DNA from: Gekko japonicus
Taxonomy: Eukaryota
Assembly: GCF_001447785.1 (NCBI RefSeq)
Contig: NW_015168044.1
Coordinates: 595,940 to 659,939 of the forward strand
Direction: 5' to 3'
Length of the DNA stretch: 64,000 nt
The notes beneath the pieces were generated by a model, which was not told the DNA's origin, made no database searches, and saw only the letters and a list, made by a program, of their open reading frames with translations. How positions within the stretch are numbered: the stretch's first letter is position 1; each line of letters starts with the position of its first letter. A program made the position numbers and the translations under genes. Of this stretch, positions 4,867 to 50,262 are shown piece by piece.

Positions 4867-5450
4867 TCAACTAAGGATGGAACATAAACATTAATCAATA
4901 GAAACTGGAATTCTCTATGAGACACATGAAAGGCTTGGGCCAATGGTGGGCCAACTGTAAAACAGTAAAATTGGTTGAGTCTTTGAACAAGCAGCAGAGG
5001 CCTGCTTTAGGTCGGCCCTTTGAATTCAGCTTCTAAGCAGGTAATGAATAGGCAGTAAAGTTGTCAATTGAAAAGTCCCTTAAGGACCAAGTCTCTTGAA
5101 GAGAAATGATGTCAAATTTCTCAATAAGTGTCCTGAAGTCCAAGTCATCATATTTATTCCCCCATTCTGCTATATTCCAAGAAATTATTTGTAGGGTTGG
5201 TCTTCCTATACATTCCAGATGTTGGTTGTTCGGGGCTAGTCAATCTAATTCAACTATACAATTAAAGGCTGTGTTATCTTCTGAACATATACATCCATTA
5301 ATCGCCTCCTGGGTTATACCATGAGGTGAATAAGGTTGTTGGCATTTGTTAGCATTTAAAAGGTATGGTTTTGCAGGATCGTTGGTTAAGTAGTGCAATG
5401 TCATTCCTTGCAGGATGAACAAGGGACTGTTGAAGAGTAACTAAAGAGTT

Positions 5451-5674
5451 CACTCTTTCGAGGGGGCATGTATTTGTATTTGCTGTGAGTGGCTTGGGGA
5501 CCACTAGGACCATCGTAGGTAGCTCATCAAGAGGCATCTCAGCATCAATAATTGATTGGGGTCACTCTTTCGAGGGGGCATGTATTTGTATTTGCTGTGA
5601 GTGGCTTGGGGACCACTAGGACCATCGTAGGTAGCTCATCAAGAGGCATCTCAGCATCAATAATTGATTGGGGG
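5451..5674. repeat. ~111-bp tandem duplication
   Basis: TCACTCTTTCGAGGGGGCATG...AATTGATTGGGG occurs twice head-to-tail. Confidence 0.9.
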
Positions 5675-8143: not shown

Positions 8144-8530
8144 TTAGAGACAAAGAATGAAAAACGTGATCTGTCTCTCCCTCCATCCTCTCTTCTCCAG
8201 GCAAAACATACCCCCTTCCTTCAACCTTTCCTCCTGAACCAGTTCCAATTTGATTACATTTTTCTTAAAGTGCAGCATCCAGAACCAAGATCCTCTCTTC
8301 TCCAGGCAAAACATACCCACTTCCTTCAACCTTTCCTCCTGAACCAGATCCAATTTGATTACATCTTTCTTAAAGTGCAGCATCCAGAACCACGTGCAGA
8401 ACTTCAGCAATGGTCTGACCAGCGTGAAGCAAATTAGAACTATTACTTCTTGCGATCTGGATGCCATGCTTCTATTAATGCACTCTGAAAACTCCATTAG
8501 TGTTTCTGCAGCCGCTTCACACTACCTGTG
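8144..8530 (-). mobile_element. Old CR1 fragment with internal ~100-bp duplication
   Basis: LVRPLLKFCTWFW..HFKKD..LVQEERLKEVGMFCLEKR, partly repeated twice. Confidence 0.75.
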
Positions 8531-9803: not shown

Positions 9804-11401
9804 AAAACACTCAAACCTTGTCTTATATAAACTTTTAGTTTCTGTTTAAGCAATAAATTGTATCACTAAAATAGAACAACAACTTTAAGGGGATATCCCA
9901 ATTCTATACTACAGTCAACCCAAACCCGAGCTGTTAGCATAAAGAGGTAACAGTTACTTAATACTGCACCAAAGCCTACATCTTACCTGCTCCTTCAAGT
10001 ATACCCATTTGTCAAATAACATCATGAAGATTATACAGAGATATTGGTATATGGTCTCAGATATACCAGGCTGTGAGATTCCACCTCGTATAGCATATTC
10101 ACGTACACAAAATTCAAAAGATCTATTAGTTTTATCTGACTTTAGGCATCTAAAAGATATGAGCCAACAACCTTTGGGTTTTTATTGTTGTGGGTCCTGT
10201 AAAGCATGCAAATATGCTTTGAATACTAGAAAACTTACACATCCAGACACTTTTTATAGAATAGACATAAAAGGTTTCAGCAACTGCAACACAAAGAAAT
10301 ATATATATATCTTGTCCTTTGTAAATGTAGAAAAAAAATACATTGACAGTACAATAAGGGCTATTAAAACAAGGGTGCTTGAACATATCTTGAGAATTAA
10401 AAATTACATTAGAAAAGCCCCATTAGTGGAACACTATAGGCATATGAATCATTCACCTGAATCTTTGAAATTTCTGGATATATATAAATACATGGGGAAA
10501 CCTAATTCTTATGTGGATGTTCAAAAACACCTGCTACAGATGGAAACTAAAATGATTTTTCACTTAATGCATCCAAAAGGACTGAATTTAATGAATGACT
10601 TCTCTTGCTTTCTGTGAATAGTGTAAAATGATTGAATATATACATTCAGTAAAAGTTATACCTTGGTAGTTTTAATTCGTAGGGGTTAGTTAAGTAAATT
10701 ATATATAAAATATAGGAACTTTACAGGTAAGGTTTTAATAGTGTAGTTGTTCTCAGTTTCTAATGATACAAATAAATACTCCTGTTGGTATCACCTTTAA
10801 GAAGAGAGATGTTCAGGAAGTGCTATCTGCAATTTAGCAACAGCAAACACTTCACTCTTGGAAATGGTGGGAAATGCTGTCTAAGTTCCTTATTAAATCA
10901 AGTAAAGGTAGCTATTTTCTATAATTAAACTATATTGCAAATTGCAATGTCATTTTGAGCTAAATATAACATGTGCCTTTGTTTACAATGTTTTATGTAG
11001 AAGTGCTGCGGAGGACTGTCGACTCCCTAACATCATTGTGCCTTTGTTTACAATGTTTTATGTAGAAGTGCTGCGGAGGACTGTCGACTCCCTAACATCA
11101 TTGTGATTATCAAGCACTGGGAAAAATGAAGATTATACAGAGATATTGGTATATGGTCTCAGACATACCCGGCTGTGAGATTCCACCTCGTATAGCATAT
11201 TCACGTACACAAAATTTAAAAGATCTATTAGTTTTATCTGACTTTAGGCATCTAAAAGATATGAGCCAACAACCTTTGGGTTTTTATTGTTGAATAGTAT
11301 AAGAGTTGGTTTGGTTTGTACTGTACCACTAGAATATGTTGATACAATTTATTGCATAAACAGAAACTAAAAGTTTATATAAGACAAGGTTTGAGTGTTT
11401 T
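9804..11401 (+). mobile_element. Penelope-like element (Neptune-type) 3' part with GIY-YIG endonuclease
   Basis: ORF 10009..10617: CGSCKAC Zn linker, then CNTKKYIY..KYIDSTIRAIKTRVLEH..PLVEHY..E..I..PKGLN; inverted terminal copy 9804-9865/11340-11401; internal duplications. Confidence 0.85.
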
Positions 11402-13785: not shown

Positions 13786-13884
13786 GACAGGCCCGTGAGA
13801 GACAGTCTGCAACCCCCCCGTCTGCCTGCCTGCCTCTGGGCATGTGCAGAGCACCTCCACACCTCACTGCCGCCTCCTTTTCAG

Positions 13885-13982: not shown

Positions 13983-14354
13983 GCAAGTGAAGCCCGCTTG
14001 TTTTCTTTGTGGAGTAGCCGGTGCCCTGGCATGCTTGGCCTCCAGTCCTGAGAAGCCTGCTCTTTTGGGCTGGAAGGGGGGAAGAGTAGGTAGGCGTGGA
14101 GGAGATGCCTTTTAATACTGGCAAGATGAGTGTTCCCTCAAGAGAAGCCTTTATGAATCCTCCCCTGCAGGCAACAGAAGGGTGGCACCACTTGTGGCCT
14201 TACTGGCCTTCAGGCAAAGGTCTGGCAAGGACTTGGGCAGGTGGAGCCCCTTGTGGGTGCAGATGGGGAAGAATTGCTTGCCTTGTAGGTTGCCAGCAGT
14301 AGGGGGGTCTGGTAACCAGGGCCATAAGCAATGCCCACTGCCTTTTCACCTGAG

Positions 14355-18375: not shown

Positions 18376-18438
18376 AAACGGGCAGTGAAGGCAGAGAATA
18401 GTGTCATAAAGTTGAAGCGGGAAAATGCACAACTTCAG
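18376..18438 (+). CDS. ENTR1: ENTR1 exon (63 nt)
   Basis: KRAVKAENSVIKLKRENAQLQ; ccag/gtatga. Confidence 0.95.
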
Positions 18439-19016
18439 GTATGAGTTCTGCCCCTCCTGCTGGGGCAGAAGCTACAACGGTGAAGGAAGCACTGTGCCAT
18501 AAATAGCTGTGAGCTGCTAAGCCCTGACTGGTGTGCCGGAGCTGGTGCTTCAGAGGTTGTTGCAGACACTTCAGCAGTCACTGTGGAGACTGGCTCAGGG
18601 TGCATAGCAGTTGCAATTGCACTCCCATTTCTCAACCAATGTATTGTTTTAGATATTACTACTATTAGCGGCTTATTGTTTAAGATTATGCCCTGGGGTT
18701 TTTTGCCCAGTGGGGATGCAGCCCAGATTATACCTTTCTCTCCCTCTGCATTTTTCACAGCAAGCCTGTGAAGTAGGTTAGGCTCAGAGAAAGTGACTGG
18801 CCCAAGGTCACCCAGCCAGCATCTTTGGCAGAGTGGAGATCTGAACGTGGGTCTCCCAGATCCTGGTGCAATGCTTTAACACAACATACACTGGCTCTTC
18901 TCCATGTGCAACTGCATTGTGTGTAGTGCTATGTGTAACTGCCACTGCAGCTGCGCTTTTTATAGAAGCAGTTGCCAAGTTTTCTTCCCCCCCGTTCCGC
19001 ACCCCCCACTTGCAAG

Positions 19017-19222: not shown

Positions 19223-19888
19223 CTTGCAAGCCGTTTATAGTGCTTTGTGGGTTGACTGGGGAAGATTTTCTGTATGTCTTCAGTGTCCTGGGACTTATAA
19301 ACTGGCATCTCACCAGAAGACAGTGAGAACTTTTTTGCCTGGATATTCAACAAGGAAACTGGAAACAATACGATGTTCACAGCAGTTGCACTTTTCTAAA
19401 AACAGGGGTGTACTAATCTAACGTAGGATTGTGGAAACTAGTAGCAAGTTCAGTGGCAGGGGGGTAGCCAATGGATCATATCCTGGACCCTGCTTCAGAT
19501 GTGGTATTGGGTAAGTCCCTGTGGGACTTGGTACTCACACAAGGTGCTGTATGGCTGACAGGCACCGTTGGCATCCCCATTTAAATGCGATGTACAAGTC
19601 CCACGGGCGGGCATTTGCACTGTGGCCTGGCCTAGTTCCCTGGGACCTGAAGTTTCAAAAGGCAAAAACGACTCAAGCCACTGTCCTGAGCGAGCACGGA
19701 GAGAAGTCTGAGTGAACTCAAGGAGACTGGATTTCCAAGTAGGAAGTCCTTAGGACTGCACTGTAAGCAACGTTCAAAATTACTGTTGGCTTCTAGACTC
19801 AAAGGTGTCCTTTGGAATGTAGACTTCCTGTACTTTTCATCCAGTTGTGCATGGAGCTTTGATGTAATCAACTTCTCTTTCGCTTTCC

Positions 19889-20378
19889 TTTTTTTTGGTA
19901 AACAAATTTTATTTTCTTAGGAATTCAACATATAGAAATAAACCATTTCATCCATTCCATTGTCTACCCCATTCCCATTTCCTCCCCTCCCTCCAGTGGC
20001 TTCCCGCAATGCTTCCCCCCCTACTCCGCATTACTTTACATCCTCAATTATATCATTTTCTTATCATTACAATCTTAAGATAACATCATTTGACTTAATA
20101 TTGATCTAAACATATTAAGTTTTGTTTCACATCCCAGTTCTTTTCCAAATATATTTTAAAGTCACTCCATTCTTGAAAAAACACATCATCTTCTTTGTTA
20201 TTCAACTTTTTCGTAATTTTATCCATTTCTGCCATGAACAGAACTTTTTGTATCCAGTCTTCAATTTCTGGTACTTTCTCTGTTTTCCAAAATTGTGCAT
20301 AAATCATTCTCGCAGTTGTAATTAAGTACCAGAATAGAGTCTTTTTAGTCGTATTGATTTCCTCCATTTTTAATCCTA
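19889..20378 (-). mobile_element. 5'-truncated L1/Tx1-type LINE (ORF2 C-terminus, 3' UTR, polyA)
   Basis: LGL..LFWYLITTARMIYAQFWK..P..EDW..AEMDK..F..EW; AATAAA then A-run at 19889-19896 on minus. Confidence 0.8.
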
Positions 20379-20381
20379 AAG

Positions 20382-20521
20382 GGACAAATGAAGAATTGCC
20401 AGCTGGAAAATGAAGCCTTGAAGTCCAGTCATTCGGCAAATCTGGCTGTAATGAAAAAAAATGCGGATATTGCCTTGCAGAATCTTCTTGCTATCGTAGC
20501 AAAGTCTCATTCATCTATCAA
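20382..20521 (+). CDS. ENTR1: ENTR1 exon (140 nt)
   Basis: GQMKNCQLENEALKSSHSANLAVMKKNADIALQNLLAIVAKSHSSIK; aag acceptor, gtaggt donor; phases fit neighbours. Confidence 0.92.
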
Positions 20522-20694
20522 GTAGGTTTTTTGAAACTTTCAGTAAGTACACTAAAATGTCAGATGGTGGCAGTTTGGTAGCTGTTGTAAGGATTTAAAT
20601 TAGCCTTGGCCTCCTCTGTCAGCTGCTAATATAACACATGACTTCCCTGCCTTTAAAAACATTTGGGTAGTTTAGACTAATTATGCCAATCAAT

Positions 20695-26357: not shown

Positions 26358-26451
26358 GCAGCTGCTGTCTGGGGCAGAAGGACTGCAACTCGTAGCTGAT
26401 CTCCTCAAGTCTATAGACAGATTCTCTGAGATACCAGAAGATTCACCATGA
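26358..26451 (+). CDS. ENTR1: ENTR1 last coding exon to TGA
   Basis: QLLSGAEGLQLVADLLKSIDRFSEIPEDSP*; tttctag acceptor. Confidence 0.95.
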
Positions 26452-28574: not shown

Positions 28575-30706
28575 CTAGGAAAAAGGCCCGTTATGGAAAT
28601 AAATACAACGGCCTCTAGAAAGGGTCTCTGGGCGGGTGTCCTGGCCTGCTCAGAAGGCAGAGCATCACTTGCCCCAGAGCCCCTATCTATACCTTGTGGC
28701 TAATAGCCACTGATGGACCTCTGCTCCATATGCTTATCTAATTCCCTTTTGAAGCCGTCCATGCTTGTAGCACCCACCACTTCCTGTGGCAGTGAATTCC
28801 ATGTGTTAATCACTCTTTGGGTGAAGAAGTACTTCCTTTTATCCGTTCTAACCCGACCACTCTGCAGTTTCATGGAGTGCCCACGAGTTCTTGTATTGTG
28901 AGAAAGGGAGAAAAGTACCTCTTTCTCTACCTGCTCTTTCCCATGCATAATCTTATAAACCTCAATCATGTCACCCCTCAGTCATCATTTCTCCAAGCTA
29001 AAGAGCCCTAAGCGCCTTAACCGTTCCTCATAGGGAAAGTGTTCCAACCCTTTTATCATTCGAGTTGCCCTTTTCTGCACTTTTTCCAAAGCTATAATAT
29101 CCTTTTTAAGGTGTGGTGACCAGAACTGCACACAGTATTCCAAATGAGGTCTCACCATTGATTTATATAGGGGCATTATGATATTGGCTGATCTGTTTTC
29201 AATACCCTTCCTAATAATCCCCAGCATAGCATTGGCCTTCTTTATTGCAGTCACACACTGTCTCGACATTTTCAGTGAGTTATCCACTACAACTCCAAGA
29301 TCTCTCTCTTGATCAGTCTCTGCCAGTTCAGACCCCATCAATGTGTATTTATATTTAGGATTTTTGGCTCCAATGTGCATCACCTTGCACTTGGCCACAT
29401 TGAACCCCATTTGCCATGTTGACGCCCACTCGCCCATCCTTGACAGATCCCCTTGGAGTGCCTCACAATCCTCACTGGTTTTCACCACCCTGAACAACTT
29501 TGTATCATCCGCAAATTTAGCCACTTCACTGCTTACTCCCATCTCCAAATCATTAATGAACAAGTTAAAAAGCAGTGGACCAAGTACTGATCCCTGCGGT
29601 ACCCCACTGCTTACCACCCTCCACTGAGAAAATTGCCCACCTACACTCACTCTCTGTTTTCTATGAACTAGCCAGTTTTTGATCCATAAAAGGACTTGTC
29701 CTTCTATCCCATGATTTTTGAGCTTACTTAGGAGCCTTTGATGAGGAACTTTATCAAAAGCTTTCTGGAAGTCAAGGTAAATAATATCTATTGGATCCCC
29801 CTTGTCCACATGTTTGTTCACCCCCTCAAAGAACACTAACAGGTTAGTGAGACAAGATCTTCCCTTACAGAAACCGTGCTGAGTCTGCCTCAATAGGTTT
29901 TGTTCATCTATGTGCCTACTAATTCTTTCCTTAATAATGGTTTCCACCAATTTACCCGGTATCGACGTCAGACTGATTGGCCTGTAATTTCCCGGATCTC
30001 CTCTGGAACCCTTTTTAAAGATGGGAGTGACATTTGCTACCTTCCAATCCTCAGGAATGGAGGCAGATTTTAAGGAAAGATTACATATTTTTGTAAGGAG
30101 ATCCAGAAGTTCACATTTGAGTTCTTTCAGAACTCTCGGATGTATGCCATCTGGGCCTGGTGATTTATCAGTTTTTAAGTTGTCTATCAGTTTTAGGACC
30201 TCCTCTCTTGTCACCTTGGTTTGACTCAGGTCTTTCAACACCCCTCCTGAAATCAGCGGTTCTGGAGTGGGCAAGCAACTTTGTATCTGGAGTGATACAG
30301 AGCCCACCATTTTCTCCCTGGGGACTGATCTCTGCCGTCTGGAAAGCAGTTGTAATTCTGAGTGATCTCCAGCCCTCACCTGGAGATTGGACACATATTA
30401 CCTCAGAACAGCAAAACTGTTTAGAATGTTAGAGGCAAAAGCCAATCAAGTCGCATATGCAAACGACCTCTGTGTTCCGAGGCAAAGGCCAATGAGGCTG
30501 CATATGCAAATAACCTCTGTGTTCTGACTGGCTGTGGGGGGAGAGGAAGAGCAAACTGTTTAGAATGTTGGAGGCAGGACTCAGGCAAAGCAGCCAGTGG
30601 ATAGGGAGACCCTCTGAACGACAGATCAGAGAGCGAACTGATTTTGGAGCGTGTGGAATGTTCTAGAGAAGTGCCACCACCATTCAGCTTTTATTTATAA
30701 GGGAGA
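28575..30706 (-). mobile_element. Non-autonomous Helitron containing a CR1 segment
   Basis: Minus 5' A|TCTCCCTTATAAATAAAAGC; 3' hairpin CCGTTGT..ATAACGG then CTAG|T; no TSD. Confidence 0.75.
28657..30280 (-). mobile_element. CR1 LINE RT region, same young family as 12049-13219, lacking both 5' end and 3' tail
   Basis: ORF 28985..30394 with KSPGPDGIHPRVLKEL, NYRPISLTS, YLDFQKAFDKV, FADD; CGA>TGA stop at 28985. Confidence 0.95.
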
Positions 30707-32620: not shown

Positions 32621-33294
32621 GCCAGCGCGGACCCAGGGCAGGCTTTCCAGGGCACGAGGCGAGCAGACTGGCAGACCCAAGTCCCGGCCGGGGCCGCCGC
32701 CTCCGCGCTCCGGGCCTTCGTCGCTGTTCCCACGCGGCTCCCTCGCCGCCGGTCTTCCAGCCTCCCCCGGAGAAGCTTTCGGGACCGGGCGGGCGGAGTG
32801 AGCGAGCCAGCGGCCGGCGCCTGCGCGAGCCACTGCGGCGGGACTGCGCCTGCGCGCCCGCCCCGCCCCCCGCAAGGCCCGCCCCNNNNNNNNNNNNNNN
32901 NNNNNNNNNNNNNNNNNNNNNNNNNNNNNNNNNNNNNNNNNNNNNNNNNNNNNNNNNNNNNNNNNNNNNNNNNNNNNNNNNNNNNNNNNNNNNNNNNNNN
33001 NNNNNNNNNNNNNNNNNNNNNNNNNNNNNNNNNNNNNNNNNNNNNNNNNNNNNNNNNNNNNNNNNNNNNNNNNNNNNNNNNNNNNNNNNNNNNNNNNNNN
33101 NNNNNNNNNNNNNNNNNNNNNNNNNNNNNNNNNNNNNNNNNNNNNNNNNNNNNNNNNNNNNNNNNNNNNNNNNNNNNNNNNNNNNNNNNNNNNNNNNNNN
33201 NNNNNNNNNNNNNNNNNNNNNNNNNNNNNNNNNNNNNNNNCAGGCGGGTCGCGGCGGGGGTGGCTGGTCCGGACGGAAGCGCTGCGGCCGCGGC
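32620..33294 (+). promoter_or_regulatory. SNAPC4 CpG-island promoter
   Basis: Very CpG-rich; NRF1-like TGCGCCTGCGC 32845-32855, GC boxes 32856-32885; island also extends to 31290-31600. Confidence 0.75.
32886..33240. other. Assembly gap (N), probably hiding SNAPC4 first coding exon
   Basis: Run of N within the CpG island; next exon starts in phase 1 without ATG. Confidence 0.9.
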
Positions 33295-49723: not shown

Positions 49724-50262
49724 ANNNNNNNNNNNNNNNNNNNNNNNNNNNNNNNNNNNNNNNNNNNNNNNNNNNNNNNNNNNNNNNNNNNNNNNNNNNN
49801 NNNNNNNNNNNNNNNNNNNNNNNNNNNNNNNNNNNNNNNNNNNNNNNNNNNNNNNNNNNNNNNNNNNNNNNNNNNNNNNNNNNNNNNNNNNNNNNNNNNN
49901 NNNNNNNNNNNNNNNNNNNNNNNTTTTCCTTTGGTTGCGCTCCCCCACCGTCTGTTTCCCCCACGTGAGCCTGCAAAAGGGTTCCTGCACCACCCATTCC
50001 CCTTGCTGGAGAGTGGCTGAGGGGGCAGTTCCTCCCCTCAGACTCTGGAAGCAGGTGTGACTCACCTTCTGTTCCTGCCTGCCTGACTTCTTGTTCTGCC
50101 TTGGACTAGAGCGCAGATTGAGAAGCCTGTGGAGGAACCCTCTTGGCAGTTTTTTGTGGCCTTCTCACACACACACACACACTTCGAATTTTTCTTTCGC
50201 CAAGGTGTAGACTACACATAATTGGCCATTTATTCTGAGTCCTAACAACTTCCTCTCTTTAG

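Follow-up and report, generated by a model that had tools for sequence, protein, structure and literature searches.

Retroelement insertions into the polypyrimidine tract or the AG of an acceptor are a classic example of harmful insertions, and genomes contain few of them. Several described systems come near to the locus reported here. In NF1, 4 of 14 Alu insertions hit the AG or polypyrimidine tract of an acceptor, as in our case, and the next exon is skipped (PMC3219598). In canine merle, an antisense SINEC_Cf stands at an intron/exon border of PMEL with its oligo(dT) first, a cryptic acceptor lies by the T tract, and the original exon start is still usable (PMC6091007, PMC7349775). In BLOC1S2, MIR/AluSp sequence supplies a branch point and splice-site sequence (PMC6822395), and polymorphic Alu elements near exons shift inclusion of the nearby exon (PMC6326789). 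Finally, mammalian LINE copies that survive near exons are short and antisense-biased (PMC3088655).

In the gecko Gekko japonicus, a truncated antisense L1 copy separates the old polypyrimidine tract from the start of a conserved coding exon of ENTR1 (SDCCAG3), called exon 7 here. Our preferred reading, which we regard as probable, is that the L1 copy supplies the branch point and tract of exon 7, that the normal exon start has been kept, and that some skipping is probably the cost. This differs from each described system. The NF1 cases are de novo pathogenic Alu insertions, whereas the gecko element is a truncated L1 carried by both animals, inclusion of the exon persists and skipping is at most a side product. 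In merle the element is a SINE, its target duplication measures 15 bp, its T tract is 25–105 long and exonisation is in frame; by contrast, the gecko locus has an L1 with T8 and a duplication of at most 4 nt, exonisation was not seen, and the product of the cryptic site would contain a stop. The cases of PMC6822395 and PMC6326789 concern new exons made of transposable elements or tuned alternative exons, while the gecko L1 stays intronic and likely replaces the signals of an existing exon. The gecko copy, like the mammalian survivors, is short and antisense, but PMC3088655 gives a mammalian statistic and ours is a zero-distance squamate survivor whose reason for survival is visible. In the literature searched we found no report of a fixed LINE that has taken over both the branch point and the tract at an exon already in existence. 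The variant described here would be an in-place swap of both signals at an existing conserved exon, at a single locus.

The ENTR1 gene and the inserted copy

The window, that is, the whole stretch of 64,000 nucleotides analysed here, holds seven ENTR1 coding exons, placed by tblastn between 13842 and 26451. Joined together they equal the Gekko japonicus RefSeq ENTR1 isoform X1 letter for letter (333 aa), and the 47 residues of exon 7 match gecko and lizard ENTR1 at 65–89%, which identifies the gene. Exon numbers 6, 7 and 8 are working labels (Table 1). The exon behind the L1 is intact and in frame, as the initial annotation had stated, and its segment is conserved, with 119 of 121 proteins containing it; neither exon 7 nor full ENTR1 had a Pfam match above cut-off.

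Some further features of the gene were recorded. The first codon of exon 7 (20382-20384), 2 nt from the insertion, encodes Gly; at the same position 119 other ENTR1 proteins have Ala (64), Val (44), Thr (7), Leu (2) or Ile (2), and none has Gly. The intron after 13982 starts with GC at 13983-13984 (a GC-AG intron), and this join is required to reproduce isoform X1. Both RefSeq isoforms, X1 and X2, have their start upstream of an AG at 13883-13884 (window 13842-13884). The first ENTR1 exon of other geckos is absent from both isoforms, and tblastn did not locate that exon within the window.

Table 1. Coordinates (window positions) of the features discussed in the text
Feature	Position	Strand	Remarks
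ENTR1 exon 6	18376..18438	+	63 nt, phase 0-0, donor GT at 18439
Likely old branch-point motif TTGAT	19859..19863	+	A at 19862; motif match
Old host polypyrimidine tract	19871..19888	+	now ~490 nt from exon; single-copy depth to ~19888
L1 A8 tail (T8 on +)	19889..19896	-	some of the T letters may be host
L1 3′ UTR, ~200 nt	19897..20097	-	AATAAA 19913-19908, G-rich tract, ORF2 stop codon 20097-20095
Cryptic acceptor TTTTCTTAG in L1 3′ end	19912..19920	+	most family copies have CAG
L1 ORF2 C-terminal 94 codons, open	20098..20380	-	5′ truncation at 20380; frame 20379-20098
Predicted new branch point TTGAT, L1-derived	20354..20358	+	A at 20357 (-25); motif match
L1-derived polypyrimidine tract	20358..20377	+	17/20 pyrimidines, 31 nt AG-free
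Junction zone	20374..20380	+	TCCT also at 19886-19889; all 7 letters match L1 family
Acceptor AG in use, AAG type	20380..20381	+	45 junction reads, X22
ENTR1 exon 7	20382..20521	+	140 nt, phase 0-2, in C-terminal region
ENTR1 exon 8, last coding exon	26358..26451	+	target of skipped form

The segment 19889-20380 is a 5′-truncated antisense L1 copy of a high-copy family, which consists of the ORF2 C-terminus, the 3′ UTR and an A8 tail. The description of about 490 bp of antisense L1 with the poly-T end first is borne out by ORF2 homology, by an AATAAA 11 nt ahead of A8, and by repeat depth: summed DNA contig depth is 5e4-2e6 over the L1 segment versus 50-176 in the flanks and exon (two DNA runs). 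An exhaustive protein search with the ORF2 peptide gave 173 relatives at E<=0.001, and a word-based protein search with the same fragment gave no match. A 1245-aa Podarcis protein that has endonuclease and reverse transcriptase domains (Exo_endo_phos and RVT_1) aligns with the peptide over its own final 90 residues, at 37% identity over 84 aa. RVT_1 was found in 4 of 7 long ORF2 relatives scanned, in 3 of them above cut-off, and one long relative (P0055) matched human L1 ORF2p with an E of 1.5e-127 versus 4e-25 for R2. The fragment alone gave nothing above cut-off in Pfam. ORF2 homology suggests that the copy, which is itself without the RT domain, is L1 and probably not Tx1.

Reads of two DNA and two RNA runs (RNA runs X21 and X22), taken from 24 listed runs that are all of one organism, were compared over 19700-20680. 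L1-family RNA reads enter the poly-T at 19889 (205 in X21, 11 in X22) and match through 20380 and beyond (116 in X21, 14 in X22); past 20380 they stay in frame with ORF2 by hand translation and resemble homologues. The limits of 19897-20378 first assigned to the element were thus too narrow, and the copy spans at least 19889-20380.

No second L1 copy was found within the window by blastn. Other reverse transcriptase fragments lie on the minus strand at 2136-2859 and 29525-30304, with 26–41% identity to L1-like ORF2 proteins. Two-copy tandem duplications of 112, 105 and 65 nt (97–100% identity) at 5450-5673, 8185-8392 and 10972-11105 are either recent or assembly artefacts, and N runs at 32886-33240 and 49725-49923 mark assembly gaps. 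The L1 family is abundant in RNA run X21, where 3327 reads match over 19700-20680, nearly all on L1, versus 437 in X22 with similar numbers of letters read, and DNA carry-over is possible.

Acceptor sequences before and after the insertion

The pyrimidine run 19871-19896 exists as initially described and is composed of the tract proper (19871-19888) followed by T8 (19889-19896). The single-copy tract stops at the L1 tail, and the exon starts after the last L1-matching base plus G, which suggests an insertion inside the tract/AG of a 3′ splice site where tract and acceptor would once have been adjacent. Because L1-family reads enter the poly-T at its first letter and match to the last base before this G, neither the T run nor the AAA in front of the exon can be assigned to the host; the AAA of 'AAAG' may belong to L1, to the host or to both, or may reflect microhomology. 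The sole sequence common to both L1 ends is the 4-nt TCCT, itself L1-matching and a possible target duplication; no target duplication of 5 nt or more was found between the L1 ends.

Several empty sites may be considered. They range from a blunt join of the T run to AG, through 'TTCCTTTTT/AAAG', to CCTAAAG, the last of which may imply a 4-nt duplication together with 7-nt microhomology. All 15 scored variants give a normal acceptor, in which 17–19 of 20 letters are pyrimidines and the branch motif falls between -30 and -39, and the old tract is severed from the exon under every one of them. Hence the core reading of the initial annotation, that the L1 parts the old tract from the ENTR1 exon, holds. 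Its claim that removal of the L1 restores 'TTCCTTTTT/AAAG' is unsupported as an exact site, this being one of several possible empty sites, all of which make a normal acceptor. Its L1 endonuclease cut at TTTT/AA is likewise unsupported as worded, with boundary letters that match the L1 family and ends that share just the 4-nt TCCT.

At present, no branch motif or tract other than those in the L1 sequence lies close enough to serve the AG at 20380-20381, in agreement with the earlier proposal that both signals now come from the element; the branch point is predicted by motif match. With the L1-family letter, the branch motif would become TTGAC. Intact members of the family continue with AG past 20380 and so have their own latent acceptor AG one base beyond the AG in use. 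In a comparison of six ENTR1 acceptors, with exon 2 left out, pyrimidine counts were 14–17 of 20 and the L1 tract equalled the best of the six; the exon 7 acceptor was also the only AAG among them.

Antisense L1 contains 64% pyrimidines versus 51% in the intron. Cut points of the L1 that score as well as the actual one number 5 of 438 (1.1%). Under a looser rule (14 of 20 pyrimidines plus branch motif), 55 of 438 L1 cut points pass versus 10 of 1360 in the host intron, and without the branch motif 164 of 438 L1 cut points pass; all of these are crude counts from overlapping windows, with the strict threshold set post hoc and no trained splice model. We read these counts to mean that antisense L1 is a good tract donor and that the actual cut point belongs to the best it offers, for which survivor bias, microhomology or a combination of the two could account. 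We also considered compensatory improvement after insertion and rejected it for now, as the copy-specific changes at 20358 and 20362 are pyrimidine for pyrimidine.

Use of exon 7 in RNA and alternative explanations

In RNA run X22, the end of exon 6 appears as a loose part at 20380 in 45 reads, which confirm the junction 18438->20382 that had been listed for checking, and the start of exon 8 appears as a loose part at 20522 in 27 reads; this junction support comes from one RNA run, of an animal presumed to carry the insertion. Exon 7 depth in X22 is 51-72, and intron depth is 0 on both unique flanks. In X21, exon 7 depth is 2-8, and no spliced alignment was among those listed. Reads of X22 over the L1 come almost all from other family copies: a letter other than that of the family was read in 1 of 21 reads at 19954, 0 of 21 at 20028, 0 of 39 at 20043 and 1 of 16 at 20362. 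L1 sequence in ENTR1 mRNA (exonisation) is thus limited to at most 1 read in X22, where nonsense-mediated decay (NMD) was not blocked, and upstream acceptors plus retention amount to at most 11.5% (95% bound, 1 versus 45 reads, X22). Since 45 reads use 20382 and at most one carries the upstream intron, the branch point and tract of exon 7 are likely L1-derived.

The cost of this arrangement is the less firm part of our reading. RefSeq ENTR1 isoform X2 (269 aa) is exactly the computed exon 6 -> exon 8 product, which is frame-shifted, and its stop sits in the last exon; X2 would therefore escape NMD. The suggestion to look for exon skipping has accordingly found an exact match, in the form of a model and not of read counts. 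RefSeq predicted models rest on read-supported introns. In a pattern search of ENTR1 proteins (the protein set comprised 120 of 322 matches, with 14 clusters opened), the frame-shifted exon 8 ending occurs in 1 of 148, namely isoform X2, and the exon 6 -> exon 8 product occurs in 0 of 5 further gecko species whose models extend into the last exon. The exon 7 segment is held by 56 of 62 squamate proteins, and the five without it besides X2 end otherwise. Proteins of Varanus, Hemicordylus, Podarcis lilfordi and Sphaerodactylus and one partial protein were set aside as candidates, being without exon 7 but not carrying the frame-shifted exon 8. Exon 7 is probably skipped to some extent, the predicted isoform X2 being a hint of such leakage.

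The skipped form might instead be splicing noise that is unrelated to the insertion, with the L1 signals working free of cost. This is the best placed of the alternatives, though we consider it unlikely. The L1 tract is as strong as those of other ENTR1 acceptors, exon depth and the counts at both junctions are those of a well-included exon, annotation runs differ in what they keep, and other lizards also have variant models around the junction. Skipping may be background because other squamate models vary around the same junction; the variant ENTR1 models include two of Podarcis that skip exon 6 in frame and those of Eublepharis with another ending after exon 7 (P0285, P0288, P0164, P0277). 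Against a cost-free replacement stand the restriction, among the 148 proteins, of the exon 6 -> exon 8 product to this species and the AAG of the acceptor, unique among the six compared. The link between L1 and skipping is hence a fair lead, not a result.

An improbable alternative is hidden competition, in which an AG at 19920 (or 20348) is served by the old branch point together with the old tract and T8, and NMD clears the products. The cryptic acceptor TTTTCTTAG ending at 19920, named initially as a competitor, does exist, but no competition was seen in X22. Splicing to 19920 would lengthen the mRNA by 461 nt and bring in a stop after 4 codons. With 19920 or 20348 in use, the stop would lie 586 or 164 nt upstream of the last junction, and therefore NMD could hide the products of both sites. 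The two sites have 11 and 9 of 20 pyrimidines and no branch motif in range, which argues against this possibility, as does the lack of a trace among the X22 reads at the four positions given above. Merle does use such a site beside oligo(dT), but its short T tracts (25–55) splice normally (PMC6091007, PMC7349775), and the gecko tract has 8.

It is very improbable that the old branch point and tract act at a distance, with the spliceosome scanning as far as the AG at 20381. Both old signals are still intact, and distant branch points exist in vertebrates, but these need an AG-free stretch, and 15 further AG intervene between the old tract and exon 7.

The insertion itself was followed in DNA. 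The right junction is bridged by one contig per DNA run (20303-20680 in DNA run X1, 20281-20680 in DNA run X2), which reaches 78 or 100 letters into the L1; left contigs are unbroken to 19915 and 19910, below the 31 letters set for a bridge. The L1 is present in both DNA samples, and no empty allele was among the 8 joints listed in the two DNA runs, both from one study. A C at 20362 is unique to this copy in both DNA runs, and the remainder depth there (66.5 and 94.0) equals that of single-copy contigs. At least 8 of 492 positions (>=1.6%; 8 found among 40 of 195 rows) differ from >90% of family depth in both DNA runs, so the copy is not brand new. The insertion is likely fixed in the species, on the basis of two DNA samples from one study, one of which may have yielded the window sequence. 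It is scarcely credible that the insertion is an assembly artefact or a rare allele that the RNA-sequenced animals lack: those animals are ungenotyped and the window has gaps, but the right junction is bridged in both DNA samples, 20362-C is present in both at single-copy depth, the copy has diverged from its family, and at 20362 a letter other than the family's stands in 4 of 177 X21 reads, close to the flank depth.

A possible course of events and its meaning

According to our preferred reading, in which L1 signals took over exon 7, the L1 endonuclease would have nicked the plus strand where pyrimidines gave way to purines in the old acceptor, with priming of the poly(A) tail at that spot. 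The resulting copy ends at 20380, within ORF2, and its end may have been joined via 1–7 nt of microhomology, with a target duplication of none or 4 nt. In accordance with this, truncated human L1 insertions can have short target duplications and show microhomology in nearly 80% (PMC2912911); these data are human, and junction habits of gecko L1 were not found in the literature. By its motifs, antisense L1 at this point has a branch motif, a 17/20 tract, an AG-free gap and its own AG one base on, and U2 snRNP and U2AF would read these L1 signals together with the AG at 20380-20381. The swap may have been good enough for tolerance and likely fixation, and imperfect with respect to its AAG acceptor. 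The cost would be a minor skipped mRNA that escapes NMD and encodes a 269-aa protein without the normal C-terminus. It would seem that the ENTR1 insertion owes its survival to the replacement signal that came with the element.

A further, rather doubtful idea is acceptor-guided self-repair, in which the end of the host acceptor pairs with the most similar part of the L1 cDNA (here over at most 7 nt) and steers truncation to a latent antisense acceptor, leaving the exon with a branch point and tract already in place. If this were true, then with antisense L1 as rich in pyrimidines as here, splice-signal turnover might recur at constitutive exons in L1-rich reptile genomes, with truncation hotspots at latent acceptors and species-specific leaky isoforms like ENTR1 X2.

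A single locus alters no general picture. In human cells, ENTR1 requires its last 16 residues to bind Dysbindin and to sort Fas (PMC6629679), and the ENTR1 coiled coil is able to multimerise (PMC5073310). If skipping is real, the product loses this end of ENTR1, and the truncated form might matter. The ENTR1 L1 would represent a natural transplant of splice signals at a conserved coding exon, one that can be tested with minigenes.
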